Source of the DNA: a virus
IMG/VR virus record: IMGVR_UViG_3300048906_000028
Span: 1-54,183 of that record
DNA: 54,183 nt
Direction: 5' to 3' (one strand)
Below the pieces are notes generated by a model. The model was given only the letters and a program-made list of their open reading frames with translations. It was not told the origin of the DNA and did no database searches. Position 1 is the stretch's first letter. Each line of letters begins with the position of its first letter. Made by a program: the position numbers and the translations under genes. Positions 1 to 14,704 of this stretch are shown here, one piece after another.

Positions 1-127
1 AGCTGTACGAGGAACTGGGCGAAGTGATCAAGAACCCGTCCGACCCCCTGGAATGGGCAGACGTTTTTATCATGCTGCTGGACCTGTCGAAGATGAACAA
101 CATCGATGTGGTGTCCGCGATCCTGCA
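1..127. repeat. Terminal overlap, copy 1 (identical to 54057..54183); signature of a circular assembly
   Basis: agctgtacgaggaactggg...gtgtccgcgatcctgca occurs at both contig ends, 127 bp. No mismatch was seen by eye. Confidence 0.9.
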
Positions 128-278
128 CAAAATGCAGATCAACCAAGAGCGCGTCTGGACCGAGACTCCCACCGGCACCTACCAGCATGTGGTACCTAGC
201 ACCAGCACGATCCCCGCCCCCTCGGTGGGTTGGTCGGCCGACCCCCTTTCCGCCGCAGTGGCACAGGGAGCAACGTGA
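3..278 (+). CDS. mazZ: MazG-like all-alpha NTP pyrophosphohydrolase, 3' part of a gene that wraps the contig junction (5' part 53927..54183); MazZ candidate
   Basis: The frame of ORF 24..278 is open back to nt 3. Through the 127-bp overlap it is in phase with ATG 53927. The joined product is 135 aa and has LYEELGEV (ExxE) and EWADVFI motifs typical of MazG-type enzymes. Confidence 0.7.
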   Translation: MYEELGEVIKNPSDPLEWADVFIMLLDLSKMNNIDVVSAILHKMQINQERVWTETPTGTYQHVVPSTSTIPAPSVGWSADPLSAAVAQGAT

Positions 279-307
279 AGGCCGCCCCACAACACGGCAT
301 CCGCCGC

Positions 308-466
308 ATGACGCAACCCGAAGAGGTGGCCTACGCCCAAGGGTCCCGGGACGCGGAAGAAGGCCAGCCCTTGGCCACACGCAGCCACGGCTTCAAGACG
401 CATGATGAAATGTCGGCGTACGAGCGTGGCTATTACAACTACGCAGGGGAGGCCGTAAATGGCTGA
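308..466 (+). CDS. Small hypothetical protein (52 aa)
   Basis: ATG 308 lies inside ORF 230..466. The stop overlaps the next gene's start by 8 nt. No recognisable domain. Confidence 0.35.
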   Translation: MTQPEEVAYAQGSRDAEEGQPLATRSHGFKTHDEMSAYERGYYNYAGEAVNG

Positions 467-1007
467 ATTGAGTTTGGAAGAGCGCCTCCGCACGGCGCAT
501 GTACATCGCTGGCAAATCGTGCGGGTGGCCCGCGAGCAGACCTTGGCCGAACATCTGTACCTGGTTCGCGTCATTTCACTCGCTTTCGCCGAGGCGGCCG
601 GTTTCTCGGTGGCCGAAACTTGCGTGGCTGAACAATGGGCGCTGGAACACGACGTTCCGGAAGTTCGAACCGGCGATCTGGCCACCCCTATCAAGGCCGC
701 GATGCGGGAAGCGATTCCCCATGATGACCCGGTGCGCCGCATCGAACTGTCGATTTCGCAGAAATATTGCGACCTCTACACGGAAGTCAAGACCAAGTAC
801 CCACAAGTCCAGTTGTTGGTAAAGCTCGCCGACCTGACGGAGGCCGTCAACTTCCTGAACGTAGAAGGCATGGGCACGCACGCCGACACGGTCAAACGCC
901 GGTTGTGGAAGGCCTTCTTCGACCTGATTTCCACCGCCCCGAAGCGCTTTCCTGATTACACCTGGGCGAAGGTATACGATGTCGCCAAGCGGCAGACCGG
1001 GGCGTGA
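459..1007 (+). CDS. datZ: HD-domain (YfbR-like) phosphohydrolase; DatZ (dATP triphosphohydrolase) candidate
   Basis: 182 aa with an H...HD...D ligand pattern (LAEHLY, EHDVPEVRTGD). It sits next to the MazG-like and PurA-like genes across the circular junction. Confidence 0.7.
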   Translation: MAELSLEERLRTAHVHRWQIVRVAREQTLAEHLYLVRVISLAFAEAAGFSVAETCVAEQWALEHDVPEVRTGDLATPIKAAMREAIPHDDPVRRIELSISQKYCDLYTEVKTKYPQVQLLVKLADLTEAVNFLNVEGMGTHADTVKRRLWKAFFDLISTAPKRFPDYTWAKVYDVAKRQTGA

Positions 1008-1375
1008 TCATGCAGCATTCCTTACCACTCGACGGGGGTTTCCACGCAGGGCCGCTGTTCATCCCTCGCTTGCTCCGGCCGGTGGTAAGGCCTCTCGGGA
1101 AGGCGGGCATGGTACATCGTGCCCAAACTCGCCGTGCCACACCCCCGTGGGCTGACCTGGAAGCCATTGAGAAATTCTACGAAGAGGCCCGCCACAAGAC
1201 CGCCGAAACTGGTGAATTGCATGTGGTGGATCACATCGTGCCGAAGATCGGTAAGATCGTGTGCGGCCTGCATGTGCACTGGAATTTGCGGGTGATCCAC
1301 TGGTTGGAAAACTCTCGCAAAGGGGCATGGGAGTGGCCAGGCATGCCTATGGAACAATTGACCCTCATTAATTAA
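1004..1375 (+). CDS. HNH endonuclease
   Basis: VDHIVP...GLHVHWNLRVIHWLENSRKG fits the H-N-H motif. GTG 1004 overlaps the upstream stop (GTGA). ATG 1010 or 1109 are alternative starts. Confidence 0.7.
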   Translation: MIMQHSLPLDGGFHAGPLFIPRLLRPVVRPLGKAGMVHRAQTRRATPPWADLEAIEKFYEEARHKTAETGELHVVDHIVPKIGKIVCGLHVHWNLRVIHWLENSRKGAWEWPGMPMEQLTLIN

Positions 1376-1384
1376 GGAAGTATC

Positions 1385-1726
1385 GTGCGCAAATCGGATT
1401 TCAAACTGCTTATTAACAGGACTTTCGAGTCAATCAAGGCCCTGACTTCATCGAAGGGTGAAGAGTACGCCAACAACGCGGCGGACGGTAACGCCGACCA
1501 ACACGCCAATTTCAAGCGCCAGGCTGAGCAACTCGGCATGAAGCCGGAGCAAGTACTGTCGGTATATATGTCCAAGCATCTAGATGCGATTTCGTCCTAC
1601 ATCCGCACCGGCCGCGAGTTCTCGGAACCCATCGACGGCCGTATCGACGATGCCATCCTGTACCTGATCTTGCTGAAAGGTCTGGTGACCGATTCCCGCC
1701 GCGCCGCCGAGGTGTCCCCTACCTGA
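1385..1726 (+). CDS. Small all-alpha protein, DUF1599/MazG-like fold (tentative)
   Basis: 113 aa with a GTG start. The pattern KGEEYA...ANF...LG...SKHLDAISSY...DDAILYLILL resembles the nucleotide-modification-associated MazG-like domain. This rests on memory of the family only. Confidence 0.5.
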   Translation: MRKSDFKLLINRTFESIKALTSSKGEEYANNAADGNADQHANFKRQAEQLGMKPEQVLSVYMSKHLDAISSYIRTGREFSEPIDGRIDDAILYLILLKGLVTDSRRAAEVSPT

Positions 1727-1761
1727 TTGTTGCAAAGGCACAACCCCGCACGCGGCAATAC

Positions 1762-1790
1762 TTGCAAAGGTGAAAACCGCGTGTTTTAAT
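1762..1790 (+). promoter_or_regulatory. Class I sigma70-like promoter, TTGCAA-N17-TTTAAT
   Basis: -35 at 1762-1767 and -10 at 1785-1790. The inverted repeat CACGCGG/CCGCGTG (1749-1755 and 1777-1783) brackets the -35. A second TTGCAAAGG box lies at 1730-1738. Confidence 0.6.
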
Positions 1791-1836
1791 AGAGGTTCGG
1801 GCAATCCCGCCCGTTATAGAGAATAGAGGAAATACC

Positions 1837-2103
1837 ATGAAAATCTTCCAAGTCGCAGTAGTTTCCGGCGAGCCAATGGATTTCGACGACGTGATGCATG
1901 CGGCTACCAACCCTAACCCGATGTTCTTTACAGCGGAGCGTGCCCAAAACTACGTAAATGATGATCTCAACGCCTGCACGGACGAAATGGGCGTGGACCG
2001 CGAAGTGTTGGAGTGGTACCACACCGACGAAACCACCTGGCAGGCCCGCTCCGAGCAAACCGGCACTTGGTACGTGATCACGCAATCGACCGTTCAGGAA
2101 TAA
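1837..2103 (+). CDS. Hypothetical protein (88 aa)
   Basis: ORF preceded by the ATAGAGAATAGAGG leader box and followed by a terminator. Confidence 0.7.
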   Translation: MKIFQVAVVSGEPMDFDDVMHAATNPNPMFFTAERAQNYVNDDLNACTDEMGVDREVLEWYHTDETTWQARSEQTGTWYVITQSTVQE

Positions 2104-2110
2104 CCAAACT

Positions 2111-2135
2111 GGCCCGCTTCGGCGGGCCTCTCTTT
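2111..2135 (+). terminator. Intrinsic terminator
   Basis: GGCCCGC-TTCG-GCGGGCC stem-loop followed by TCTCTTT. Confidence 0.7.
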
Positions 2136-2158
2136 AGCCACCTTTAAGGACGTTCACC

Positions 2159-2413
2159 ATGGCAAAGCGCAACATCGAAACCAAGTACTTCATCGGCCGC
2201 ACTGAATCCAAAATCACCCGATCGGTGGACCCCCACCGCGCCGTGGCCAAGTGCGTGCTTAACATGCAACGCAATGAGTACGGCGCGGACTTCGCTGAGG
2301 TCTGGGACCTGGAGACCGGCAAGGTCTACGCCCAGATCAAATTCTTCAAACGGGGTCATATCGACATCATCTACGCCCGCAACCCGCGCCCCGCGCTGCC
2401 CCGCATAGCGTAG
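2159..2413 (+). CDS. Hypothetical protein (84 aa)
   Basis: ORF with an AAGGA ribosome-binding site upstream. No recognisable domain. Confidence 0.65.
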   Translation: MAKRNIETKYFIGRTESKITRSVDPHRAVAKCVLNMQRNEYGADFAEVWDLETGKVYAQIKFFKRGHIDIIYARNPRPALPRIA

Positions 2414-2441
2414 CGCCTTTGCAACGCGCGCACGGGGGTAC

Positions 2442-2470
2442 TTGCAAAGGCGAGTCCCCCGTGTTTTAAT
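2442..2470 (+). promoter_or_regulatory. Class I promoter, TTGCAA-N17-TTTAAT
   Basis: -35 at 2442-2447 and -10 at 2465-2470. Inverted-repeat arms CACGGGGGTACT (2431-2442) and AGTCCCCCGTG (2453-2463). Upstream CCTTTGCAA box at 2416-2424. Confidence 0.6.
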
Positions 2471-2516
2471 AGAGGTTCCGGCGCGCTGCGCCCCCATAGA
2501 GAATAGAGAGAACGCC

Positions 2517-2705
2517 ATGACCAAGACCCAACTCAAGAACAAAGTCGACGCGATTTTCGCCGAGATTGACGTCCACACCGACCTAACCCCCGCGCAGCGC
2601 GCCGCGTACCGCCGCGAGGTGGCCGCCCTCCTGGCCAACGCCCTGGAAGTGGTGCACAACGCCGTCCCGGCCGTCAGCAAAAAATTCCGCAAGACCGCCA
2701 AGTAA
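2517..2705 (+). CDS. Hypothetical protein (62 aa)
   Basis: The internal ATG of ORF 2442..2705 lies just after the ATAGAGAATAGAGAG leader box. Confidence 0.6.
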   Translation: MTKTQLKNKVDAIFAEIDVHTDLTPAQRAAYRREVAALLANALEVVHNAVPAVSKKFRKTAK

Positions 2706-2706
2706 A

Positions 2707-2758
2707 CCATTCTGATGATGGCCAGCGGGGGCTGGCCGAAACGCTCCGGCGTCAATGG
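2707..2758 (+). ncRNA. Hammerhead ribozyme, type I (candidate)
   Basis: CCAUU-CUGAUGA-(U)-GGCCAGC[GGGG]GCUGGCC-GAA-ACGC[UCCG]GCGU-C/AAUGG. All core nucleotides are present. The predicted cut follows C2753 (GUC). Confidence 0.75.
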
Positions 2759-2779
2759 ACCCTAACTTTGGAGAATAGA

Positions 2780-3517
2780 ATGAACAACGCATCCGAGAAA
2801 ATCATCGAGCGCATCCGCCAACTTCTGGCCATGGCCGCCGATGTGTCCTCCCCGCACGAGGCGTCGATTGCCGCAGGCCGCGCCCGCAAGCTGATGGACC
2901 AGCACCAAATCGCGCTGGAGGACATCAAGGACGAATCTACCGGATTCGGTTACGTGAAGGTCGACAAGGCCTACCGCTTCATGCCTAAATGGAAGGACAT
3001 TTTGTGCGTGGCCATCGCCAAGCTGAATGATTGCAAAAGCATCAAAGCGCACGAGTACAAAGTACAGGGCAGTAAGTCCTACGCTTACCGCCTGATGTTC
3101 CAGGGGTTCGAAACTGATGTGGCCCTGGCCGCCCACATGTACAACTACCTGATCGGAACCATTGAGCGGTTGTGCGCCGCCCACATGCGCTCCCTGAACC
3201 TGGGTGCATCGCTTACCAAGGTGTCCGACGCCTACAAGAAGGGCGCGGCCGTGGAAATGTGCGCCAGACTGCGCGCCATTCTGGCCGCCAGGACTGCAGA
3301 GGTCAAGACCTCAACCGGTTCATCGTTGGTTGTATTCAAAATGGCGCAGGTTGAGGCCGAATTCGGCGCGGCCAAATATACCAACACCAAGCTGGTTACG
3401 CGCAAGGACGCACTGACCCTCCAGGCACAGGCCAAGGGCCGCGAGGACGCCAAGAAAATCGGCCTCGATACCCAAATCGGTGATCCTGACCGCGACCCGG
3501 CCGCCCAGGTGGCCTAA
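2780..3517 (+). CDS. DUF2786-like protein (245 aa)
   Basis: The N-terminus KIIERIRQLLAMAADVSSPHEASIAAGRARKLMDQHQI matches the DUF2786 signature from memory. ATG 2780 follows GGAGAATAGA. Confidence 0.65.
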   Translation: MNNASEKIIERIRQLLAMAADVSSPHEASIAAGRARKLMDQHQIALEDIKDESTGFGYVKVDKAYRFMPKWKDILCVAIAKLNDCKSIKAHEYKVQGSKSYAYRLMFQGFETDVALAAHMYNYLIGTIERLCAAHMRSLNLGASLTKVSDAYKKGAAVEMCARLRAILAARTAEVKTSTGSSLVVFKMAQVEAEFGAAKYTNTKLVTRKDALTLQAQAKGREDAKKIGLDTQIGDPDRDPAAQVA

Positions 3518-3539
3518 CCCGTATCAACCCGCGCTCCCC

Positions 3540-3568
3540 TTGCACCGGGGGCGCGGCCGTGTTCTAAT
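3540..3568 (+). promoter_or_regulatory. Class I promoter variant, TTGCAC-N17-TCTAAT
   Basis: Arms CCGCGCTCCCC (3529-3539) and GGGGGCGCGG (3547-3556) form a hairpin. Its 7-nt loop is TTGCACC. CCGTGTTCTAAT follows. Confidence 0.5.
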
Positions 3569-3612
3569 AGCAATATCGCGCTCGGGAGTCGGGTGCGAAC
3601 CCCATAGAGGAT

Positions 3613-3915
3613 ATGATGAAGACCTTAACCTACGCCGCCACCACCTGGGATTCCACCACGGGTGAAGCACACCCGGCCAGTGTGACCATTCTCACGGCCC
3701 CCGGCCCCATCATGATGGAACTGGTGGCCTATACCACCCACGCAGGGCTGTGCATCGAGGCCGATGAAAACCCATCTGATTGGCAGTTGATCGCCGTGCA
3801 CGGTGACTCGCAGGCCTTCGTGTCGGTGTGGAGGCATGTCGACAGCCAGACCCTGTCGACCGAGAATTGCGTACTGATCCCATCCGCCGAGGACATCGGG
3901 TTCAAGAAGTCCTAA
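3613..3915 (+). CDS. Hypothetical protein (100 aa)
   Basis: ORF after the CCCATAGAGGATATG leader, with tandem ATGs at 3613 and 3616. Confidence 0.65.
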   Translation: MMKTLTYAATTWDSTTGEAHPASVTILTAPGPIMMELVAYTTHAGLCIEADENPSDWQLIAVHGDSQAFVSVWRHVDSQTLSTENCVLIPSAEDIGFKKS

Positions 3916-3917
3916 CC

Positions 3918-4349
3918 ATGCCTACCTACTCGCTCCGCTGCCGCCTGAACGCCTGCCGCCATCGTCGGGTGGCCACCACCCACCCCGATGACTTGACGCG
4001 CCGCGTGCGCTGCCCGTCCTGCAAGGGCTTCCACGGGTGGCGGATCGAGCAACGCCATTACAACCGCCGCCAACTTTGTAACTGCAGCGGCCCCGAAATG
4101 ACCCAGGCGCAGGGCAAGAATTTCCCGCACCGTAGGCACCACCCACTTTGCGACAATAACCCCTGGTCCCATTATAACAAGGCTGTAGTCCTGGGCGTTC
4201 CGCCCGGGTATGCTCTGGGATTGCGCCAGGAGCGCCGAACTGTCGATCGACCCGTACTTATTGAAAGGAGAAAACCCGCCATCCTGGTTTGGCCTACCGA
4301 CATCTTTGGGGGTCGGCGCATGTTGCCCGATGAACCCTGCCCATTTTAA
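3918..4349 (+). CDS. Cys/His-rich (zinc-ribbon-like) hypothetical protein (143 aa)
   Basis: ATG 3918 lies 2 nt after the upstream stop. Motifs CRLNACRH, CPSCKG and CNCSG. The 5' extension to 3828 overlaps the previous gene. Confidence 0.6.
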   Translation: MPTYSLRCRLNACRHRRVATTHPDDLTRRVRCPSCKGFHGWRIEQRHYNRRQLCNCSGPEMTQAQGKNFPHRRHHPLCDNNPWSHYNKAVVLGVPPGYALGLRQERRTVDRPVLIERRKPAILVWPTDIFGGRRMLPDEPCPF

Positions 4350-4351
4350 CT
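4323..4351 (+). promoter_or_regulatory. Possible weak class I promoter, TTGCCC-N16/17-TTTAAC
   Basis: It lies at the 3' end of the upstream gene, directly before the TATAGAGAATAGAGG leader of gene 4373. Confidence 0.3.
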
Positions 4352-4372
4352 TATAGAGAATAGAGGTATATC

Positions 4373-4744
4373 ATGAAGACCAACACTTTTACCGAGGTAC
4401 TGTCCACCATCAACGACGCCGAAGACGCAGCTTCCCGCGCCTCTAGCGCCCTCCAGATGGCCCGTGAAGAAATGGTCGAACGCTTTTCGCCCTGGCAGGT
4501 GGGCGAGACCGCTACCCAAACGATTGGCGGGGTTAAGGTGACCATTAAAGTAACGAATGTCCAGGTGGCCAAGTCCGGCCGTCACGGGCACAAATTCGTG
4601 GCCACTGGCGACCGCATTACCGACGATGGTGTCGAAACCGCTGAACGCATGACCCTGGAAGCGGAAATCAATGAATCCTTGGCCGACCGCGCCGCCCCCG
4701 CCACCCGCAAGGGTACAAAGGGGGCTGCCAGCAAGGCTAAGTAA
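4373..4744 (+). CDS. Hypothetical protein (123 aa)
   Basis: ORF after the leader box. No recognisable domain. Confidence 0.7.
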   Translation: MKTNTFTEVLSTINDAEDAASRASSALQMAREEMVERFSPWQVGETATQTIGGVKVTIKVTNVQVAKSGRHGHKFVATGDRITDDGVETAERMTLEAEINESLADRAAPATRKGTKGAASKAK

Positions 4745-4776
4745 GCCCTCGGGGGCCTTCGGACGCGCTCGCCGCT

Positions 4777-5043
4777 ATGTTGGCCCCTACTGACCCTCAA
4801 GAAAGTCACGGAGATACCCTCCGTGCAGCCGGAGACCCCTTGAAAGCACGTACCCTCAAGCGCCAGCGCGACCGCAACGTCGCCGAAACCGCCCGCCGCA
4901 TGTTCCCGCCCTATCGCGAGTTCCACGAAGTGTCCGGTGAGACCTACTGCGCCAAAATCTCCATGCACCTGCGCGACTCTTTGGCGATGCTGGCTACCAC
5001 CAAATCCCTCGCAGCCCATATCCGAAACCACCTGAAAGCCTGA
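4777..5043 (+). CDS. Doubtful ORF (88 aa). If real, the true start may be TTG near 4840.
   Basis: The 5' half overlaps a degenerate GTACC-box repeat. The 3' half (KRQRDRNVAETARRMFPPYREFHEV...) looks protein-like and ends 1 nt before the next ATG. Confidence 0.3.
   Translation: MLAPTDPQESHGDTLRAAGDPLKARTLKRQRDRNVAETARRMFPPYREFHEVSGETYCAKISMHLRDSLAMLATTKSLAAHIRNHLKA
4798..4836 (+). repeat. Degenerate copy of the GTACC box
   Basis: caagaaagtCACGGAGataccCTCCGTGcagccggagac shares the ...CTCCGTGCAGCCGGAG end with the other copies and has a 7-bp internal inverted repeat. Confidence 0.4.
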
Positions 5044-5044
5044 A

Positions 5045-5743
5045 ATGAAAGCAATCATTTTTGACACCGAAACCACCGGCCGCGAATCGTCGACCGTCAT
5101 CGAAGCCGCCCACATGTATGTGCACCTGGACGGCGGCACCCTGGTCCGCGCCCTTCCCCCCTACCTGCAACGCTTCGACCCGGCCCCGATCCAGATCGAA
5201 TGGGGCGCACTGGCTACGCATCACATCTTGCCGCATGAACTGGAACATATGCCAGCATCGGCTGACTTCCAGATCCCTGACGATGTCAAATTCATTATCG
5301 GCCACAACGTCGATTTCGATTGGACAGTCGCGGGTTCCCCCGATGTGCAGCGCATCTGTACGCTGGCGCTGTCCCGCTGGCTCTGGCCGGACCTGGACGC
5401 GCACAACCAGTCGGCCCTGTACTACTGGATCAAGCAAGATGATCTGGCTGGCGCTCGCGAAGTTCTGCGCAACGCCCACTCCGCCGCCGTCGATATTCAA
5501 ATTTGCGCCGATATCCTTTTGTACGAAATTGCCACGATCCGCCAGCGTGGTTATGTATGTGACACATGGGCGCAGTTGTGGCTGCTGTCCGAAAAGGCCC
5601 GCATCCCGACCGTTATGGGCTTCGGCAAGCACAAAGGCGAGAAGATCGCGGACATCCCGGCCAGTTACAAGTCCTGGATGCTCAAACAAGAAGAAGTGGA
5701 CCCGTACTTGCGAATCGCACTGCAGGGCGGGGTGATGAAATGA
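5045..5743 (+). CDS. DnaQ-like DEDDh 3'-5' exonuclease (ExoX-like)
   Basis: FDTETTG (Exo I), IGHNVDFDW (Exo II) and HSAAVDIQICAD (Exo III, H-x4-D). The C-terminal KHKGEKIADIPASYKSWML resembles the ExoX-like C-terminal motif. Confidence 0.8.
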   Translation: MKAIIFDTETTGRESSTVIEAAHMYVHLDGGTLVRALPPYLQRFDPAPIQIEWGALATHHILPHELEHMPASADFQIPDDVKFIIGHNVDFDWTVAGSPDVQRICTLALSRWLWPDLDAHNQSALYYWIKQDDLAGAREVLRNAHSAAVDIQICADILLYEIATIRQRGYVCDTWAQLWLLSEKARIPTVMGFGKHKGEKIADIPASYKSWMLKQEEVDPYLRIALQGGVMK

Positions 5744-6177
5744 CCAAATTGGAAACGCGCACCAAATCCAAAGTCGCGAACCGCCTGTACGACAGCCCCG
5801 CACGCAACGAGGTCATCGCAGTCCTGCGGGAACACAAACGGATGACCTCGCAAGAAATCGCGGACCTGTTGGGCCGCAAGGCCTGCACGGTGAACCAAAC
5901 GATCATGCGCACCCGCGCCGCGAAGCCGGGCGGCCGGAAATGGTTCCGCATCGCTGCCTGGGGGCGTAACGTCGACTCCAATATGGGCCACATTGCAATG
6001 ATTTGGGAAATTTCGGAGCTTGCCGACAAGCGACGGCCGCCGCCAGCCGGTCCCAAGGTGATCCAGGCCCGGTATTACCAGAAGCGCAAGGCCGTACTCA
6101 ACCTGCGCCACAAGGCCCGATCCGGCCAGCCTATCAATCACTGGCTTGTGGCCCTGGCCCCGGGAGCGCGATTGTGA
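5740..6177 (+). CDS. Winged-helix DNA-binding protein (145 aa)
   Basis: ATG 5740 overlaps the upstream stop (ATGA). VIAVLREHKRMTSQEIADLLGRKACTVNQTIMR looks like a helix-turn-helix. Confidence 0.6.
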   Translation: MTKLETRTKSKVANRLYDSPARNEVIAVLREHKRMTSQEIADLLGRKACTVNQTIMRTRAAKPGGRKWFRIAAWGRNVDSNMGHIAMIWEISELADKRRPPPAGPKVIQARYYQKRKAVLNLRHKARSGQPINHWLVALAPGARL

Positions 6178-6422
6178 ATTTTAATCATATCGCCTACGTG
6201 CATGAACTGTCGACCCGCCTGCGGGAGGTCAACAAGCAATCCAGGCGGGTTTATTTGGTATGTCTATCGGACTCGGCCAAAACGGAGTTCAGTTCTTCCG
6301 CCTCCGATGCTGGCTTGCAGGCGGCGCGCAAGGCCATTAGCGCCCATCTCATGGCCGAGCGTATCCTGATTATCGAACGCCTGGCACAGTACGGCGTAAC
6401 TTTTGACGAGGAGGAAGGGTGA
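6174..6422 (+). CDS. Hypothetical protein (82 aa)
   Basis: GTG 6174 overlaps the upstream stop (GTGA). Confidence 0.5.
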   Translation: MNFNHIAYVHELSTRLREVNKQSRRVYLVCLSDSAKTEFSSSASDAGLQAARKAISAHLMAERILIIERLAQYGVTFDEEEG

Positions 6423-6655
6423 GCAACATTAAAGAGGTGGACTTCTCGCAGAAGCCTGATGTGTCGTTGATAACCACTCTCCGCAATATGCTAGCGCTGG
6501 CTGAACGCGGCCAATTAGTTAAGCTGGTGGCCATTTACCAGGCCAGCGATAAAAACGTTATCGTGCGCAACGCCAGCCTCAACGACAGCCTTGTCATGAG
6601 CAGCCTTTTAAAAGAACAAATTTTACGGGAGTTTTTCGATGGCGACCAAGCCTGA
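6419..6655 (+). CDS. Hypothetical protein (78 aa)
   Basis: GTG 6419 overlaps the upstream stop (GTGA). Confidence 0.55.
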   Translation: MSNIKEVDFSQKPDVSLITTLRNMLALAERGQLVKLVAIYQASDKNVIVRNASLNDSLVMSSLLKEQILREFFDGDQA

Positions 6656-7076
6656 ACAGAAGATGTGGGATTACATATCCGATAAGATGCGCGGCCGGTG
6701 GAATGCGCAGCGCCACGAAGATGAACTATCCAACTCGGTCCCGGATGTATCGTACGGCATACGCGGCCGTGATGGGTGGATCGAGTTGAAGACCATTGAA
6801 GCCTGGCCCAAGCGCGAATCCACCAAGATCAACCTGCCGCACCTCCGGCCGGGACAGGTTAACTGGATCGAAGACCGCGCCAGGAATGGCAACGGCCGTT
6901 GCTGGTTGCTGCTGATGGTGGGCGCAACTCCGGGCGACGCCGAGTGGCTCCTGTTTCCACCCGACCACGTGCGGGCGGTTTACAACCGGGCCTGGAACCG
7001 CGAGCAAATGTTGGGCAATTGCCTCCATTGTCGGTCCAGCGCCAGCCTGGAGCATTTTCTGATGGCCAACCTGTGA
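6639..7076 (+). CDS. PD-(D/E)xK nuclease, VRR-NUC-like (tentative)
   Basis: VPDVSY...GWIELKT fits a D...E-x-K core. 145 aa. Confidence 0.55.
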   Translation: MATKPEQKMWDYISDKMRGRWNAQRHEDELSNSVPDVSYGIRGRDGWIELKTIEAWPKRESTKINLPHLRPGQVNWIEDRARNGNGRCWLLLMVGATPGDAEWLLFPPDHVRAVYNRAWNREQMLGNCLHCRSSASLEHFLMANL

Positions 7077-7121
7077 TTGTTGTGCCTTTGCAACGCCACG
7101 CGCCCGCGACAAAGGTAATTA

Positions 7122-7150
7122 TTGCAAAGGCGGGCGCGGCGTGTTTTAAT
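7122..7150 (+). promoter_or_regulatory. Class I promoter, TTGCAA-N17-TTTAAT
   Basis: -35 at 7122-7127 and -10 at 7145-7150. Arms 7097-7107 and 7130-7143 are complementary. GTGCCTTTGCAAC box at 7082-7094. Confidence 0.6.
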
Positions 7151-7197
7151 ATAGGTTCGGTAGTTCCGAAGAACCCATAGAGAATAGAGAGAATACC

Positions 7198-7470
7198 ATG
7201 ATCAACGCAAACGGCCAACACACCAACCCTGACTTCAACATCGTCCAGGCCCCAGGCAACTGCAACCCCAAATTCATCGTGATTCGCGGCCAGCGCACCA
7301 ATTCGGGCCACGCCGCTCCAGGCAGCGAGGCAATCTCGGTCCCGATGTCCCGTGACGAGGCAATCACCCACGCCGACCAACTGCAGGCCGACCACGACCG
7401 CAAAGCCGCCCGCCAAGCGGCAGTCAAGAGGATGGCTGCGGGTGTGGCCGGTAAGGCTTTTAACAAGTGA
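7198..7470 (+). CDS. Hypothetical protein (90 aa)
   Basis: ORF after the CCCATAGAGAATAGAGAG leader. Confidence 0.65.
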   Translation: MINANGQHTNPDFNIVQAPGNCNPKFIVIRGQRTNSGHAAPGSEAISVPMSRDEAITHADQLQADHDRKAARQAAVKRMAAGVAGKAFNK

Positions 7471-7523
7471 CCATTCTGACGAGGCCAGCGGGGGCTGGCC
7501 GAAACGCCCAAGGGCGTCAATGG
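7471..7523 (+). ncRNA. Hammerhead ribozyme, type I (candidate), second copy
   Basis: CCAUU-CUGACGA-GGCCAGC[GGGG]GCUGGCC-GAA-ACGCC[CAAG]GGCGU-C/AAUGG. The predicted cut follows C7518. Stem III co-varies with the copy at 2707. Confidence 0.75.
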
Positions 7524-7545
7524 ACCCTAACTTATGGAGAACGCC

Positions 7546-7866
7546 ATGACCCGTACTACCGAAGAACTGAAATTCGCTGCGAGCGCCGCGCTCGACAAGT
7601 GGATTGACAGCAACGATGACGCCGACTTCCAAGCATGGGAAGCCATCATCCGCGAACTGCGCGATACGCTGATGATCACGAACCGCGTGTACGAGGTCGA
7701 CGGCCGCCGCTGGCTGATCGAAACGGCCGTGAACCTGGCCAAGGCCGAAGAGGCTATCGCGATGGCCCGCTGCACAGGCTCCATTGGCGCTACCCTCCAG
7801 GAGACGCGGGATGGCGTCACGCACACCCTGGCGGTGGTGTCGCGCCTGCCAGGGGACGAATCGTGA
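7546..7866 (+). CDS. Hypothetical protein (106 aa)
   Basis: ATG 7546 was chosen by analogy with gene 2780 (same spacing after the ribozyme). ATG 7534 is an alternative. Confidence 0.6.
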   Translation: MTRTTEELKFAASAALDKWIDSNDDADFQAWEAIIRELRDTLMITNRVYEVDGRRWLIETAVNLAKAEEAIAMARCTGSIGATLQETRDGVTHTLAVVSRLPGDES

Positions 7867-8009
7867 TGCCCTTCAAGCCGGTCGACATCGCACTGTTGCT
7901 GGCGCTGGCCTTGCTGGCCGCCTGCATCGTGGACCCTGATGGCCTGCGGGATACCCTGCGCCCCGCCCTGCAGTGGGCGGCCGCCTTCATCCCGCACTCG
8001 GCAAACTGA
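7866..8009 (+). CDS. Possible small membrane protein (47 aa)
   Basis: ATG 7866 shares a base with the upstream TGA. Hydrophobic segment IALLLALALLAACIV. Confidence 0.35.
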   Translation: MPFKPVDIALLLALALLAACIVDPDGLRDTLRPALQWAAAFIPHSAN

Positions 8010-8032
8010 CGATTTCCCCGAGGAACGGCCCA

Positions 8033-8041
8033 TGGTATAAT
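8033..8041 (+). promoter_or_regulatory. Extended -10 promoter element, TGGTATAAT
   Basis: catGGTATAAT lies 47 nt upstream of ATG 8088. No good -35 was seen. Confidence 0.45.
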
Positions 8042-8087
8042 GCCGGTGGGTCCACTCCCCACACATAGCGAATATAGGAAAAGAACA

Positions 8088-8330
8088 ATGAAGAAGCTGC
8101 AAAAGCTGTCCCGCCGCATCCGCGCCGCCTATCATAACCTCCAGGCCCGCGCTTACCTGCGCGCTGCCCGTGCCGCCCGCCAGAATTCCATGGACTGGTT
8201 CAGCAAATCGTCCGATGCACAACAACGCTTCCGTGCCCTGACCGCCTGGAACGCCGCCCGCGACCTGGAAGAGGTGGCCCGCGACCACATGAACCGCGCC
8301 GAATTCCTCAGCCGCCCCACCTGGAACTGA
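8088..8330 (+). CDS. Hypothetical basic protein (80 aa)
   Basis: Internal ATG after the CATAGCGAATATAGG leader variant. Confidence 0.6.
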   Translation: MKKLQKLSRRIRAAYHNLQARAYLRAARAARQNSMDWFSKSSDAQQRFRALTAWNAARDLEEVARDHMNRAEFLSRPTWN

Positions 8331-8332
8331 CC

Positions 8333-8908
8333 ATGGTCAAGATTCTGAAATGCAACCTGGAATACCTGTATTGGTACGCGCCGAAAGAAGGCGAAGAAGA
8401 GGCGGAGTCTTATCGTGAAATGCGCCTCAAGGCTGCGGCCCGCTGGCAGCTGCTGCAGGAAATGGGTGTGGATGTCAGTGATCACGCCGATACTGGTCAC
8501 ATCCGCAATATCCTACTGTCCGAGCAGCAAGCAATGCAACTGATGGTGGCTGGTTACACGTTAGAGGTTAAGTCCACGGTTAATGTCGATCCCTCCGGCC
8601 CCGATGGCATGATCGAGGTGATGGCTAACTTCAACATGATGGCGAACAAGCTGCTGGCGCTGCCCGCCGCCGACCGTGCTTACAACTCCAAGTGCGAGGT
8701 ACACATGCCGGGCCAAGCGCTGTCGACCTACAACGAGGTGATGCTGCTGGAGAACACGTGCAGTGACGAGTTGCAGACCCACATAGATCACGGCTGGCGC
8801 ATGATTGCCGCTTGCCCGCAGCCCGATCAGCGGCGGCCTGACTACATCCTGGGCCGCTACAACCCGAACCGCTCGATTCCCTCCACCTACGCCGAAAGAG
8901 GCCGATAA
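8333..8908 (+). CDS. Hypothetical protein (191 aa)
   Basis: ORF starting 3 nt after the upstream stop. No recognisable domain. Confidence 0.7.
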   Translation: MVKILKCNLEYLYWYAPKEGEEEAESYREMRLKAAARWQLLQEMGVDVSDHADTGHIRNILLSEQQAMQLMVAGYTLEVKSTVNVDPSGPDGMIEVMANFNMMANKLLALPAADRAYNSKCEVHMPGQALSTYNEVMLLENTCSDELQTHIDHGWRMIAACPQPDQRRPDYILGRYNPNRSIPSTYAERGR

Positions 8909-9106
8909 ATGACCCAAATTCAATCCGCTCCAATCGAAACGAGTGATGCCGCCCTGACCCTGGCCCGCGCAGAGTTCGTGGCGGAAGTCCGCAAGCGCTA
9001 TCCTTACATGGTGATCGATTCCGACCTCGGTGCGGGCCGCCGCACCGGCAAACAGGCCCTGGAATTGATGTGGATCGGCTTCAAGATGGCTAAGGGGCTG
9101 GCATGA
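8909..9106 (+). CDS. Hypothetical protein (65 aa)
   Basis: ATG immediately follows the upstream TAA. Confidence 0.55.
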   Translation: MTQIQSAPIETSDAALTLARAEFVAEVRKRYPYMVIDSDLGAGRRTGKQALELMWIGFKMAKGLA

Positions 9107-9285
9107 AGAAGCCCTTTCCTATCACCGCTGGACTCGGGGCAACAGCTTTCGAAATCCAGGTAGGCCGCGTGGTTGTGCGCCTTCTACGACCCCGATGCTG
9201 GTTCTGGCCCCGTCGACACATAGCAAACCGGGACTCTATAGTCTGGCCGCGTTACGTCTCCATCCGGGTAACGGAGAAAGAATAA
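9103..9285 (+). CDS. Hypothetical protein (60 aa)
   Basis: ATGA overlap with the upstream stop. The composition is not very protein-like. Confidence 0.4.
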   Translation: MKKPFPITAGLGATAFEIQVGRVVVRLLRPRCWFWPRRHIANRDSIVWPRYVSIRVTEKE

Positions 9286-9543
9286 ATGGTAGACAAGACC
9301 GCCGCCCGCGCCGCGCTGACCAAAATGCTCGAATTTTGCAAGGAGGAAGAATCCGCTGACTGGTACCCGAATTTCCGCACCCTGATGGACTTCATCAACG
9401 GTGCGGGGCCTGCAGTACCGGACCTGGCCCACCCGTCCTTACCCAATGCCCCTATCGTCAAACCTAAGGAACGCTATGAAATCGACCGAAGAAAACCAAG
9501 AACCGTCAACCGCTCTGGATGGCTCGGCCCCCGAGAAGGTTGA
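9286..9543 (+). CDS. Hypothetical protein (85 aa)
   Basis: ATG immediately follows the upstream TAA. Confidence 0.55.
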   Translation: MVDKTAARAALTKMLEFCKEEESADWYPNFRTLMDFINGAGPAVPDLAHPSLPNAPIVKPKERYEIDRRKPRTVNRSGWLGPREG

Positions 9544-9544
9544 A

Positions 9545-10684
9545 GTGCCGCTGCACCTGGCCCATAAACTGCACAAAACGGGTGACTACGATAACCCGCA
9601 CCAAATTACCGACGCCAACGGCCAGGTAGTGCTGGCGCTGTGCCGCAAGTGCGGTCGTGGCGAGGCCGAATTGGACCTGGACGAGGGCGTCTGCCCGAAA
9701 GCCCTGGAAATCCACAACCGCATGGTTGAAGGCCGCTGGCGCGTCGAGTGCTACGAGTTGAACGACGGCCGTACCTATCTGTCGATCCTCGCGCCCGATG
9801 GCCGGGGAACCCGCTCCTCTTGCCTGACCCTGCAGAATGGCAACCTCGGCCCAACCGCTGAACTGTTCCGCGGATTCGCTGATCACTTCAAGGGCAAGGC
9901 CGATGTCCGTTTCAACTCCGCCATGGAACTGGCCGATTGGCTGTCCAAGTTGGTGGTGATGGATGAAAGCGGAATGGCGTTCTCCAACCTGGTTTGGGAA
10001 CCCGCCGCTGACGCCGCGCTCTACCTGCGCTTCCTGGAAAAGGTCAGCCATCGCGAACTGCAGGTCAACACGGAGCAAGAGGGATTCGCACTGGAGTGTG
10101 CGATGCAAAACGGCTTCGAATCGATCCAGGGTGACGGCAACGTCTACGCGGTCCATAGTAACGACCTGATCGATTTTATCTTGACGCAGCGCCGCCTGGC
10201 TGTGCAGCACGCATTGCGGGAACCTAAGCATGACTGCGCCAAGCGGTTGCGCGAACTGGCGGCCGGTTTTGCACAGCAGGGGGCTGTGTATAAAACCTTG
10301 ATCAACGCCGCCGAGCAGGTGGAAATTCTCTACCAGGGAATGCTTAACTGGAAGGCCACGGCGGAAGCGAAGGACATGATCTACACCGAGTTATCCAACA
10401 AAGGTCCGGAAAGCCGTTGCGAAGTTCCCCCGGAAGGATGGACTTGCACCCGTGAGGCGGGCCATGACGGTCCGTGCGCGGCCCTCCCCTCCGACCGCGC
10501 GCAATTCCGTGACCTCCCCAAGGGTGCGCGGTTTCGTTATCTGGGCGCCGACAGTGAAACTTTCGTGGTGCTTAGCACTGCAGGCCGGGGTGAAGTGGCC
10601 CAGGCCGGGGTGCGCGGCCCGCTGCAGGGTATCTACTCTTTCGGGGATGATTGCACCCAGGTGGTGGAAGTGGTTCAGTGGTAG
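9545..10684 (+). CDS. Hypothetical protein (about 379 aa; start uncertain)
   Basis: Long ORF 9401..10684. GTG 9545 lies 1 nt after the upstream stop with GAGAAGG 5 nt upstream. ATG 9476 is an alternative. Confidence 0.65.
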   Translation: MPLHLAHKLHKTGDYDNPHQITDANGQVVLALCRKCGRGEAELDLDEGVCPKALEIHNRMVEGRWRVECYELNDGRTYLSILAPDGRGTRSSCLTLQNGNLGPTAELFRGFADHFKGKADVRFNSAMELADWLSKLVVMDESGMAFSNLVWEPAADAALYLRFLEKVSHRELQVNTEQEGFALECAMQNGFESIQGDGNVYAVHSNDLIDFILTQRRLAVQHALREPKHDCAKRLRELAAGFAQQGAVYKTLINAAEQVEILYQGMLNWKATAEAKDMIYTELSNKGPESRCEVPPEGWTCTREAGHDGPCAALPSDRAQFRDLPKGARFRYLGADSETFVVLSTAGRGEVAQAGVRGPLQGIYSFGDDCTQVVEVVQW

Positions 10685-10752
10685 TCTAAGCGTTTAACGT
10701 CTCCGAGGCCTTCGGATGGTCCTAGGCTATACAAGCCCGTGCTGAACCGTCC

Positions 10753-10786
10753 GAAGGCCAGGAAAGTACCTCCCGTGCAGCCGGGA
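10753..10786 (+). repeat. GTACC box copy
   Basis: gaaggccaGGAAAGTACCTCCCGTGCAGCCGGGA, 19 nt upstream of ATG 10805. Confidence 0.7.
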
Positions 10787-10804
10787 ATACCTAGAAAGGA
10801 TATC

Positions 10805-11050
10805 ATGGGCAAGCTAGCCGTCATCTACGTAGAAACTGGCATCATCGCCCGCCACGGGCGCAAAGCCTTTGTTTACGAGGATTCCAAATACCTGGCGCGG
10901 GAAGCGCACAACAAGGCCCGTGTCATGAACAGTGTGCGCGGCAAGACAGTGTTTGAAGTCCGGCCCGTGACCGACGAGCAGATCGCAGCGGGCCGCCTGT
11001 TCGATGTAAACCAACGAAAGAACATCCATGGACTACCAATCACTAGTTGA
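10805..11050 (+). CDS. Hypothetical protein (81 aa)
   Basis: Internal ATG with an AAAGGA ribosome-binding site. Confidence 0.6.
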   Translation: MGKLAVIYVETGIIARHGRKAFVYEDSKYLAREAHNKARVMNSVRGKTVFEVRPVTDEQIAAGRLFDVNQRKNIHGLPITS

Positions 11051-12068
11051 CTGGCACGCATCCCAGGCCGCGAGCAATCGCAAGCTGGAAGAAAAATTCC
11101 TGGAGCGGGCCGCCAAGGCAGGGGACTTGCGCCCGGGTGGCCACACCCAACGGGTTAACGAAGGCCACGCCCGCCGCCACCGGAAGGTCTGGCAGTTTCA
11201 CCAGGAAGCGGTTGAATGTGCGCGGGGAACCACTCCTGCCAGCGCTACTAGCGTGGATAGGAATAGCGTCAAATATCAGGTTTTGCTCAATGAATTAGCA
11301 ATCATCATTGGCTGTGATGACCGCCGTACCGCCGCCCAAAAAGCTGCCGCTGTGCTTCGGTGGGTCGAACGTAATGCGAAGCCGATATTCACCGCGCCTC
11401 ATCCGGTCGCTGCTGCACCGTCCGATTACATCGGGAAGTTGCGCTCTGCCCTCTACGCGATTGCCTTTACCATGAACGAAGACGAATTGCGCCCAACTGC
11501 TTATGAGGCCTATAAACTTGCCGTTCCGGTCGCTGCTGCACAGGCAGTGCCGACCAAAATTCACAGCGCTTGGGAATCCATGTGCCGCAAGGCTGTTGCA
11601 GTCTTAAATCGGCATATCGTGCCCGATGGCATTTCGGATTTTGCCACACTTAGCGAGCTTTATGGAATCTTCGACAGTGAAGAATATCGCTCCACTAACA
11701 CGATAGAGCAGGACCGATGCGAACAGCGGCAGGCCGAGGCGATGTCAATGGCCCGAATTGTTGATGGCATCGCCTCCCCATCTCCAGCAGCACCAAAAGA
11801 TGCACAAGGGGTGGTGCCGGAATGGTTTAGCGTCAACAATAGCCTGCCGGAAGTCGAAACAGATGTGCTGGTGTTCGGAAAACGTGGCGATGCGATTTGC
11901 TATTCAGTGGCCGGCATCTTCACTGGCGACACGCATGTGCCTCTAGGATCGCTTACGGGCCGTGAATGGCTGGCACAGAACAGCGAAGAAGAATTGCGCT
12001 TTATTGTCTCTCACTGGATGCCCTTGCCCTCCGCCCCGCAGCCAACCGACACCAATAAGGGGGCGTGA
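11028..12068 (+). CDS. Hypothetical protein with a C-terminal DUF551-like domain
   Basis: 346 aa. The C-terminus WFSVNNSLPEVETDVLVFGKRGD...SHWMPLPSAP matches the DUF551 pattern from memory. Confidence 0.65.
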   Translation: MDYQSLVDWHASQAASNRKLEEKFLERAAKAGDLRPGGHTQRVNEGHARRHRKVWQFHQEAVECARGTTPASATSVDRNSVKYQVLLNELAIIIGCDDRRTAAQKAAAVLRWVERNAKPIFTAPHPVAAAPSDYIGKLRSALYAIAFTMNEDELRPTAYEAYKLAVPVAAAQAVPTKIHSAWESMCRKAVAVLNRHIVPDGISDFATLSELYGIFDSEEYRSTNTIEQDRCEQRQAEAMSMARIVDGIASPSPAAPKDAQGVVPEWFSVNNSLPEVETDVLVFGKRGDAICYSVAGIFTGDTHVPLGSLTGREWLAQNSEEELRFIVSHWMPLPSAPQPTDTNKGA

Positions 12069-12265
12069 TGTTTGCCATCAGCCGATTGAAACTTAAAGCA
12101 CGTGGCCACTACATCGCTTATCAGCAAACCCTGGCCGGGCTTGATTGCGGTAGTTCGCTTGGCGAAGTTATCCGCCCCCAGGCCGCGATTCACCGCGAAG
12201 CATTTAATCGAACAATGGACGATCTGGCAAAGATCGATCCCAACGCACCTACACAACGACTTTAA
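12065..12265 (+). CDS. Hypothetical protein (66 aa)
   Basis: GTG 12065 or ATG 12068 overlaps the upstream stop. Confidence 0.45.
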   Translation: MMFAISRLKLKARGHYIAYQQTLAGLDCGSSLGEVIRPQAAIHREAFNRTMDDLAKIDPNAPTQRL

Positions 12266-12274
12266 GGACGCACA

Positions 12275-12967
12275 ATGAACAACAGCCGCGCCCCTGGCGC
12301 TGACGCAGAGCGCAGGCACGTCGAGCAAGAATATACGCGGACGGCATTCGACTACACCCAACAGCCCGTCGGCAGCCGCGATTGGTGCTTATTTTGGGAT
12401 GGATGGCAAGCCGCCCGCGCTGCCACCCCGGCAGGCACTGATGGCGCGGTCCTGTCACTCAATGACCAAGGCATTGCATGGCCTATCAAACCGCGGCCTG
12501 ATGGCTTGTGGGAGTTCGTTCCCTCAGTTTCCGGCGCAATGCCTACCATCGCTGCTGGTGCGCCAGCCGAGACGCCGAAGTTAGGCTTTGAGGCATGGTG
12601 GACTGGCCGTGCATTGCCCGACGACCTGAAACCTGCGTTCTTCATGGTTTGGCAGGCAGCATTGGAAGACGGCGAGCCGGGGCCATTCCCTGCCGCCCAA
12701 GCTGCGCCAGTACAGCCTGCCACTGGGGCGGATGGGCAGGATGCGGGGGTGGCCGGCGCGTTACATGACGCTCTCACGCTTGCTGCGAAGGACATGCCAG
12801 ATGGCTTTGAAATCCGGATATGCATCGAGCGTGGGTCGGGCTGGGTGGAGTGGTCTGGGATCGACGGTGAGGCGCACCATATCGAGGGCGAGGGCTATCT
12901 GTCGGATGACGTTCACGAGGCCATCGCCGCCATGCTCGCCCCTGCTAATTCGGAGAAGCCGCTGTGA
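12275..12967 (+). CDS. Hypothetical protein (230 aa)
   Basis: ORF with an AAGGA ribosome-binding site. Confidence 0.65.
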   Translation: MNNSRAPGADAERRHVEQEYTRTAFDYTQQPVGSRDWCLFWDGWQAARAATPAGTDGAVLSLNDQGIAWPIKPRPDGLWEFVPSVSGAMPTIAAGAPAETPKLGFEAWWTGRALPDDLKPAFFMVWQAALEDGEPGPFPAAQAAPVQPATGADGQDAGVAGALHDALTLAAKDMPDGFEIRICIERGSGWVEWSGIDGEAHHIEGEGYLSDDVHEAIAAMLAPANSEKPL

Positions 12968-13344
12968 GCGCCGAGCAACTATTCGACCAGATCGCGCATG
13001 ACATGGGCTGGAACGACCACAACATGCAGCGGAACAGGCCTTACACGGGCCAGCCTCACACCGACACAGGTGAACGCGGGCGCACGGAAGTCAAGGGCGT
13101 TACTTTCCGCGATCTGCGCGACTGCTTTATACGTGCCTTCTTGCTGTCTAACGGCACGAAAATGCCAGCGCAATACGCGGAAGCGTGCAAGGGCGAAGCG
13201 GCGGCGCTCTGCGAAAACGACCTTTACGGATGGGATTTGAACCAGATTGACCCAAATGCAGTCTTTCAGAACTTCTCCTGCGAGGTTGAAAAAATGATGG
13301 GCATCTATCCAAACGTGCCAGCCCTATCGAAAGGACAACCATGA
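12964..13344 (+). CDS. Hypothetical protein (126 aa)
   Basis: GTGA overlap with the upstream stop. Confidence 0.65.
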   Translation: MSAEQLFDQIAHDMGWNDHNMQRNRPYTGQPHTDTGERGRTEVKGVTFRDLRDCFIRAFLLSNGTKMPAQYAEACKGEAAALCENDLYGWDLNQIDPNAVFQNFSCEVEKMMGIYPNVPALSKGQP

Positions 13345-13460: not shown

Positions 13461-13514
13461 GCAAGCCCAGGCTTGGATGTTGTGATGTCGTAGGCATTCC
13501 CTGATAAAGCCTAA

Positions 13515-13543: not shown

Positions 13544-13580
13544 GGGGGCCTTCATTCGGTGTCTCCAACGCTGATCTTGC

Positions 13581-14699: not shown

Positions 14700-14704
14700 C
14701 TATC

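Follow-up and report, generated by a model that had tools for sequence, protein, structure and literature searches.

The window examined here is the whole 54,183-nucleotide (nt) stretch of viral DNA held as IMG/VR record IMGVR_UViG_3300048906_000028. At its start lies the distal part of a predicted operon for a genome built with 2-aminoadenine (Z) instead of adenine, which ends with the gene for a 113-amino-acid (113-aa) protein. The family and possible role of this protein are the main subject of this work. From left to right, the start of the window holds the 3' part of mazZ, a small open reading frame (ORF), datZ, an HNH nuclease gene and the 113-aa gene. The ORFs at 459-1007, 1004-1375 and 1385-1726 were all found to be present as an initial annotation of the sequence had described them. 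That annotation had regarded the region as an island for editing the deoxynucleoside triphosphate (dNTP) pool, and the recognition of PurZ, DpoZ, MazZ and DatZ places this island within a Z-genome cluster.

The Z operon across the assembly junction

The window ends with the same 127 nt with which it begins, and the genome was therefore assembled as a circle of 54,056 nt, with a G+C content of 58%. An overlap of 127 nt on circular contigs is what assemblers running with k=127 leave. A megablast search with the nucleotide sequence of the window against the phage collection gave no match.

As nt 54057-54183 duplicate nt 1-127, the reading of mazZ resumes at nt 128 of the window. The joined ORF starts at ATG 53927, has nt 3 of the window as the first base of codon 45 and stops at 276-278, which gives a product of 135 aa. 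Its 5' part (53927..54183, + strand) comprises codons 1-85 plus 2 nt and includes the exact 127-nt overlap, while its 3' part (1..278, + strand) is read in frame from nt 3. The continuity of this frame had been proposed initially and is borne out both by the exact overlap and by the colinearity of the joined protein, across the junction, with the MazZ of the uninterrupted related contigs L004, L005 and L006.

The joined protein had been described as a 135-aa MazG-like product with ExxE and E-W-A-D motifs, which are indeed present as E48-L-G-E51 and E61-W-A-D64. It scored 38.9 bits against PF04447, the cut-off of which is 23, and matched the structure of S-2L MazZ (PDB 7ODY) with an E value of 2.9e-14. 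For the matching of residues, an offset of 6 was applied, which is the difference between the chain numbering of 7ODY and that of the corresponding paper. E47, E48, E51, E61 and D64 were found to align with the S-2L metal ligands E34, E35, E38, E50 and D53, R94 with the transition-state arginine R83, and I67 and D71 with the guanine contacts I56 and D60. Taken together, the match above threshold, the structural match and the conserved key residues identify the joined product, by homology, as MazZ-1, an all-alpha (d)GTP-type NTP pyrophosphohydrolase of the S-2L/DUF550 type.

The 182-aa protein encoded at 459..1007 (+ strand) had been proposed as a DatZ candidate on the basis of a YfbR-type HD pattern. 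Both motifs of this pattern, A30-E-H32 and E63-H-D-V-P-E-V-R-T-G-D73, are present, and the protein matched PF12917 (YfbR-like HD; 41.4 bits, cut-off 25.9), phrog_7076 ('dATP triphosphohydrolase', 1.3e-25) and the structure of S-2L DatZ (6ZPA, E 2e-17). All 13 residues highlighted for S-2L DatZ are kept. H32, H64, D65 and D125 correspond to the HD metal site of S-2L (H34, H66, D67 and D119); R17, K79 and K122 correspond to the phosphate contacts R19, K81 and K116; W18, I20 and P77 correspond to the specificity residues W20, I22 and P79; and Q27, A30 and G72 correspond to Q29, A32 and G74. The W20-I22 pair is a reported signature of Z contigs. Judged by its sequence, the HD protein is an orthologue of DatZ, an HD-domain dATP triphosphohydrolase, with the residues for dATP specificity intact.

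Between mazZ and datZ, we also identified a small ORF of 52 aa (308..466, + strand), the stop codon of which overlaps the datZ start (ATGGCTGA). It shares 56% identity over all 52 aa with the 61-aa product of the gene that occupies this place in L004 (E 5e-11) and has no match in the family libraries, including NCBIfam. A 78-aa ORF starting with TTG (230-466) was dropped in favour of this ATG ORF, which matches the conserved gene of L004. The initial annotation did not mention the 52-aa ORF, which is kept in L004, the nearest relative, a contig of 54.2 kb.

The genes that precede mazZ lie at the other end of the window. The first gene of the conserved replication/Z module is a 474-aa ORF (48747..50171, + strand) encoding a UvrD-type helicase, and PF00580 helicases occupy the equivalent position in Salmonella phage PMBT28 and in L004-L006, L171 and L173. 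It is followed by the gene for DpoZ, the aminoadenine-incorporating family A DNA polymerase (50296..52146, + strand), which scored 840 bits against NCBIfam NF038380 (phage_DpoZ_1; cut-off 500), with the full profile covered. At its longest, the dpoZ ORF can be read from TTG 50068, which gives an overlap of 104 nt with the helicase gene. As the DpoZ profile match begins only near ATG 50296, the extension at 50068-50295 is probably untranslated, and we infer that ATG 50296 is the start. PurZ, the succino-amino-deoxyadenylate synthase (52745..53854, + strand), matched NF038379 with 358 bits (cut-off 300) and phrog_1211 with 1e-88. It is 53% identical to the PurZ of Salmonella phage PMBT28, identities of the proteins to those of isolates being about 53% or lower. 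The gap between dpoZ and purZ (52128-52740) is occupied by two overlapping ORFs of 91 aa and 138 aa, which showed no BLAST similarity to the 'DNA-binding protein' of PMBT28 at that position. The relatives carry small unannotated genes in this gap.

The order purZ (52745-53854), mazZ (53927..278) and datZ (459-1007), all on the + strand, thus has mazZ between purZ and datZ, and the genes from purZ through the 113-aa gene are closely packed on a single strand. The gene order of the cluster, with the helicase and DpoZ genes ahead of purZ, matches that of Salmonella phage PMBT28 and of six metagenomic relatives. The Z operon consists of the genes for the helicase, DpoZ, PurZ, MazZ-1, the small ORF, DatZ, the HNH protein and the 113-aa protein, and it is divided by the assembly break. 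With PurZ and DpoZ above the curated NCBIfam cut-offs and accompanied by MazZ and DatZ, it is assigned by homology to the canonical Z-genome clusters. Compared with the Z-cluster of S-2L and of DpoZ-type siphoviruses (datZ-mazZ-purZ, with dpoZ in some; PMC8342488, PMC8065100), it has the same PurZ, MazZ-1 and DatZ with conserved catalytic and specificity residues. The location of mazZ between purZ and datZ is the same as well, and DpoZ and the UvrD helicase lie upstream as in PMBT28. The window differs by the addition of the HNH gene, the 52-aa ORF and the 113-aa gene.

The 113-aa protein: family, fold and genomic context

The last gene of the operon (1385..1726, + strand) has a GTG start and an AAGGAAG ribosome-binding site. 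In one search, 227 homologues of its product were retrieved at E<=1e-3, and at the same threshold the profile of the family matched 7,390 cluster representatives. It is a real and highly conserved gene. Its product, a four-helix protein of a Z-associated clade, has a sole family match, phrog_6802, which is listed as of 'unknown function'. No match was found for the protein in Pfam, in NCBIfam or among the PDB sequences, and its profile retrieved nothing from the PDB at E<=10. With PF07659 (DUF1599/Nmad1), the gathering score of which is 25 bits, neither the window protein nor 59 family members gave a match at E<=1, and one non-Z family member gave a faint match of 13.9 bits (E 0.069). DUF5664 (PF18909) matched neither the protein nor the family members, and a DUF5664 profile, made from a small alignment of ten phage records, found none of them. 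The Pfam family DUF7645, which 12 of the 59 members matched weakly (best E 0.0016), was dropped, as these matches did not recur in other family members.

With regard to conservation, K24, G25, Y28, N42, F43, R45, K64, H65, S80, E81, R86, D88, D89 and Y93 are invariant in the family alignment. In the Z and the non-Z clade alike, conservation reaches 90% or more at 16 positions, most of which are charged or polar. They include three acidic residues, which lie on helix 3 and where helix 4 begins. Two positions act as clade-specific switches: position 39, which is Q in the Z clade versus R in the non-Z clade, and position 92, which is L versus N.

The AlphaFold2 model of the protein consists of four helices (pLDDT 88.5, pTM 0.79). 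In a Foldseek search of BFVD, the best annotated match was an Nmad protein of Streptomyces phage FlowerPower (E 9.4e-4, TM 0.71, probability 1.00). A DUF1599 protein of an archaeal virus was also retrieved (E 8.3e-3, TM 0.70, probability 1.00), and further Nmad1 proteins appeared lower in the list. Against the PDB, MazG-like enzymes (DCTPP1, AF1178, iMazG, YpjD, RS21-C6 and MazG) recurred among weak matches, with E values of 0.56-5 and TM scores of 0.30-0.37. In a relaxed alignment, the segment S-E-P-I-x-G-R-I-D-D-A-I-L-Y-L-I-L-L of the 113-aa protein resembles S-D-P-L-E-W-A-D-V-F-I-M-L-L-D-L, the metal-binding helix of MazZ-1.

The initial annotation had seen a 'DUF1599/MazG-like' helical pattern in 1385..1726. 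Because of the Nmad1/DUF1599 matches in BFVD and the faint PF07659 match, the first half of this label holds at the level of the fold, although no hidden Markov model (HMM) recovers it, and the confidently predicted model suggests that the 113-aa protein shares the Nmad1/DUF1599 fold. The second half fared less well. MazG emerged only weakly, in the PDB Foldseek search, and the profile searches that had been proposed as a check (Pfam, NCBIfam, PDB and hhalign) gave no significant link to MazG. With hhalign, the probability was 0.18% against MazZ-1 and at most 0.3% against DUF5664, in a test that is powerless, since the control pair of DUF5664 and MazZ-1 failed as well. A MazG fold is not demonstrated for the 113-aa protein.

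Genomic context links the 113-aa gene with the Z pathway. In all five contigs found by protein identity, it follows datZ in a DpoZ-PurZ-MazZ-DatZ cluster (5/5). Among 77 loci with a homologue, DatZ is encoded nearby in 45, MazZ in 42 and PurZ, counted within 6 kb, in 41, compared with the rarity of PurZ in general (at least 574 confirmed loci in 2.9 million IMG/VR contigs). A distinct clade of the family adjoins datZ or mazZ in 47 of the 72 assessable loci. Context follows identity to the window protein: Z and non-Z loci numbered 31 and 0 at identities of at least 50%, 12 and 3 at 45-50%, and 4 and 22 below 45%. In a neighbour-joining tree, Z and non-Z members likewise fell into separate clades, apart from a few exceptions. 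The gene remains with purZ-mazZ-datZ in clusters without DpoZ and the helicase. When 80 loci centred on PurZ were examined, 14 were found to carry the 113-aa gene and another 14 DUF5664; none carried both, and 52 carried neither.

Fusions provide a further link. The sample examined held 33 family proteins with a length of 200 aa or more, of which five (P0255, P0244, P0195, P0125 and P0190) carry a C-terminal MazZ-1/PF04447 domain. In the tree, these fusions are placed within the Z clade. Two of them, P0255 and P0195, occupy exactly the slot between purZ and datZ in syntenic phages, where no stand-alone 113-aa gene is present. That the DUF1599/Nmad1-like helical protein is functionally tied to MazZ is shown by these fusions in sister phages. 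Two other loci, L028 (4892-7121) and L062 (6007-6788), have the alternative order purZ, 113-aa gene, mazZ, datZ, in which the 113-aa gene precedes mazZ as its domain does in the fusions. Such an order would be expected immediately before or after the two genes fused or separated.

The family also occurs in other surroundings. In the 23 non-Z loci examined, it lies between genes for N6_N4 DNA methylase or AAA_24 and UDG-PolA genes. It is encoded directly 3' of DNA methylase genes in Microcystis phage Mel-JY34 (L002, 3579-5390) and in 13 non-Z loci, and in P0164 it is fused to a D12-class N6-adenine DNA methyltransferase (Dam-type). This methylase link is a second adenine-related association, which the pool-editing hypothesis does not explain. 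The homologues in the phage database are mostly from Gordonia, Curtobacterium and Rhodococcus phages, and no PurZ gene was found near the homologue in the Gordonia locus inspected. In the phage-database search, no homologues were found in isolates of PurZ-rich genera or in PurZ-carrying isolates.

The HNH gene and the sequences following the operon

The gene at 1004..1375 (+ strand) starts at GTG 1004 or ATG 1010 and encodes a free-standing HNH/HNN nuclease of 123 aa. Its motif comprises D76-H77, N94 and N103-x-x-K106, the last position being N rather than H. The protein matched phrog_26577 (1.5e-40) and phrog_1035, 'endonuclease VII' (1.6e-7), and had no match in Pfam, HNH models included, or in NCBIfam. 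Its relatives are annotated as HNH or homing endonucleases. The D-H...N...N motif, the phrog_1035 match and the HNH-annotated relatives agree with the nuclease assignment made initially.

The distribution of this gene is sporadic: it was found in 5 of the 77 loci carrying the 113-aa gene and in 3 of the 80 PurZ loci. It follows datZ only in the window and in L004, L005 and L006, and it lies elsewhere in the cluster in L007, L008, L112, L161 and L165, so that three positions are known (after datZ, between dpoZ and purZ, and upstream of dpoZ). The closest relatives in the phage database (53-59% identity) belong to Achromobacter, Burkholderia and Bordetella phages, and no Z genes were found in the two neighbourhoods of such relatives that were inspected. 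Sporadic presence, variable position and non-Z relatives together characterise mobile homing endonuclease genes. The HNH gene therefore probably came to lie between datZ and the 113-aa gene by a homing-type insertion, as a selfish element that would stand outside the Z pathway. Like the free-standing HNH homing endonucleases of phages, its product is a small ββα-Me motif protein, and it likewise occurs sporadically and at variable sites among conserved genes for replication and nucleotide metabolism. Unlike in typical homing endonucleases, no target site, intron or intein was identified for the window protein. A packaging role was considered and dropped, given the position of the gene in the replication module and the lack of an adjoining terminase.

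Directly after the Z operon lies a promoter-like repeat (1747..1844, + strand), in which TTGCAA-17 nt-TTTAAT is followed by a conserved ribosome-binding site and an ATG. Three copies of about 100 nt each are present in intergenic regions (1747-1844, 2427-2524 and 7107-7205). They are composed of TTGCAAAGG, 9 variable nt and CGTGTTTTAATAGAGGTTC, followed by a conserved CCCATAGAGAATAGAGAGAA-N-CCATG with the ribosome-binding site and the start codon. The TTGCAA-17 nt-TTTAAT part has a sigma-70-like promoter pattern. The repeat at 1747 opens the next transcription unit, and the Z operon therefore ends before it. The three repeats are probably co-regulated early or middle promoters with a common 5' leader.

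A second motif of 18 nt, AAGTACCTCCCGTGCGGC, was observed in four copies versus 0.05 expected by chance. The three copies on the + strand (10764-10781, 18899-18916 and 42998-43015) are located after hairpins, just 5' of gene starts. The fourth (53880-53897) is on the opposite strand, within the 72-nt gap between purZ and mazZ inside the Z operon. This motif might serve as a promoter specific to the phage or as a binding site for a protein. Downstream of the island, a 249-aa protein with DUF2786 and DUF7168 (phrog_421) is encoded at 2768-3517, and it is conserved in the equivalent place in L004 and L006.

Pathway model, alternatives and significance

We consider it fairly probable that the locus as a whole is a canonical Z operon with a homing HNH insert, in which the 113-aa protein acts as a nucleotide hydrolase or as a partner of MazZ-1. 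By homology and given its conserved active site, MazZ-1 would convert (d)GTP to (d)GMP. PurZ would commit dGMP to dZMP, which would lead to dZTP with the help of host enzymes. DatZ, the active site of which is also conserved, would destroy dATP, and DpoZ would copy the genome with Z. One clade of a replication-module family resembling Nmad1/DUF1599 appears to have been recruited to Z clusters, and the protein of the window would be the stand-alone form of the domain that is fused to the N-terminus of MazZ-1 in sister phages. It may work with MazZ-1 as a split form of a two-domain enzyme and may bind a nucleotide through its invariant acidic and basic residues, the predicted site comprising K24, E27, Y28, N42, F43, R45, K64, H65, D67, E81, R86 and D89.

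The closest precedent is provided by the DUF5664-DUF550 enzymes, two-domain dATP/dGTP pyrophosphohydrolases of Acinetobacter phage SH-Ab 15497 and Salmonella phage PMBT28 (PMC12884076). The stand-alone DUF5664 of Arthrobacter phage Wayne hydrolyses dATP, dGTP and dUTP to dNMPs (PMC12884076). In both systems, a small helical domain is N-terminal to MazZ-1/DUF550 or is encoded as a separate gene in the Z cluster, and the fusions P0255 and P0195 mirror the DUF5664-DUF550 architecture in the same genomic slot between purZ and datZ. The partner domain, unlike that of the DUF5664-DUF550 enzymes, is not DUF5664 by sequence, and in the window it is a separate gene after datZ. By analogy with DUF5664, the 113-aa protein most likely hydrolyses a dNTP (dATP, dGTP or dUTP) to the dNMP, which would add an activity that removes dATP or supplies dGMP. 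Alternatively, it may serve as a partner subunit of MazZ-1. The claim that editing here is wider than the minimal MazZ/DatZ pair was overstated in the initial annotation, since a helical domain on MazZ-1 was already known (PMC12884076). What holds is that the partner in this case is of a different family and encoded by a separate gene.

Nmad1/DUF1599 (PF07659, 'nucleotide modification associated domain 1') is alike in fold, and both families are found beside genes of nucleotide metabolism. The sequence similarity of the 113-aa family nevertheless falls under every Pfam threshold, and no demonstrated activity of Nmad1 was found in the literature searched. The all-alpha NTP pyrophosphohydrolases of the MazG/HisE type (DCTPP1, iMazG, YpjD and the tandem MazG of E. 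coli) are likewise small and all-helical, and they are over-represented among the weak PDB matches. Unlike these enzymes, the 113-aa protein has no EExxE motif and no significant structural or profile match.

A bolder proposal, which we put forward tentatively and with more doubt than belief, is that the Z clade of phrog_6802 is a third type of Z-cluster nucleotide hydrolase, which replaces DUF5664/MazZ-2. In that case, Q39 and L92 would tune substrate preference, for example towards dATP or dADP, and the enzyme would be needed for complete replacement of A by Z in uncultured metagenomic lineages of Z phages.

Several observations weigh against a hydrolase or partner role in the Z pathway. The MazG-like PDB matches of the model are non-significant, as are the links of the family to MazG, DUF550, DUF5664 and DUF1599 in HMM and profile-profile comparisons. 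A further dATP hydrolase would be redundant, because DatZ already removes dATP. The 52 of 80 PurZ loci with neither domain imply that the 113-aa protein is dispensable for Z-DNA synthesis. The lack of overlap between the 113-aa gene and DUF5664 is non-significant (Fisher p = 0.11), and we therefore use it as a hint only. Finally, as most of the family probably occurs outside Z phages, in replication modules, its function may be generic.

Among the alternatives, we regard it as unlikely, if worth considering, that the 113-aa protein is a non-catalytic subunit for oligomerisation, specificity or regulation which docks on MazZ-1, in the manner of tandem-domain MazG with its one dominant catalytic domain. 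Such a role would fit the fusion to MazZ-1 in relatives, the weak PDB similarity to MazG enzymes and the fact that no HMM detects the canonical ExxE...ExxD motif of MazG. The 16 mostly charged or polar positions common to both clades, including the three acidic ones, however fit an active site better than an interface. For most of the family, no MazZ-1 is encoded nearby, so that the domain must function alone there, and its positional analogue DUF5664 is active alone (PMC12884076).

It is also rather improbable that the 113-aa gene is a generic replication-module gene, encoding a house-cleaning factor or a factor for DNA or nucleotide modification, which has no specific Z role and owes its place at the end of the operon only to a conserved module order. 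This would agree with the very large size of the family (7,390 representatives), with the location of non-Z members between N6_N4 DNA methylase/AAA_24 and UDG-PolA genes, and with the fusion of one member, P0164, to a Dam-type methyltransferase. In archaeal viruses, moreover, the structurally similar Nmad1 has dUTPase and ThyX as neighbours in what is taken to be a thymidylate operon (10.1101/2021.07.29.453957). Against it, the Z members form their own clade with switches at positions 39 and 92, they stay with purZ-mazZ-datZ even where DpoZ and the helicase are missing, and they have repeatedly been fused to MazZ-1 within the Z clade.

The initial suggestion that the HNH enzyme belongs functionally to the system, and that it breaks down host DNA containing A whereas Z-DNA is shielded, is very improbable: although its gene lies inside the operon and overlaps the datZ stop codon, which implies co-expression, and although many nucleases are described as blocked by Z (PMC12944874), the few loci that carry it (5/77 and 3/80), its three different positions in the cluster and its nearest relatives in phages without Z genes around the HNH gene all speak against such a role.

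With the pathway reading given above, the core of the system is already known, and the 113-aa family is the new testable component. The architecture of the island is a variant, in that a helical family not described before replaces DUF5664, encoded on its own in some cases and as part of a fusion in others. We found no description of this family in Z phages in the literature searched. As it has no Pfam or NCBIfam model, it is invisible to association studies based on Pfam, and this, together with its not having been found in PurZ-carrying phage isolates, is probably why it was overlooked.

The biosynthesis of Z genomes was previously treated as a closed system of three or four genes (purZ, mazZ, datZ and dpoZ). 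Recent work has revealed that lineages use different pool-editing enzymes, such as DutZ, DmtZ and DUF5664, and the 113-aa family would be another such component, possibly a fourth one. Its fusion to MazZ-1 in sister phages turns this into a definite biochemical hypothesis, tests of which would cost little. Expression of the S-2L triad in E. coli led to the replacement of no more than about 12% of the adenine in plasmids and 4% of that in the chromosome (PMC8342488). If the 113-aa protein is active, heterologous production of Z-DNA could improve, and a very large family of phage proteins from replication modules would gain its first function.

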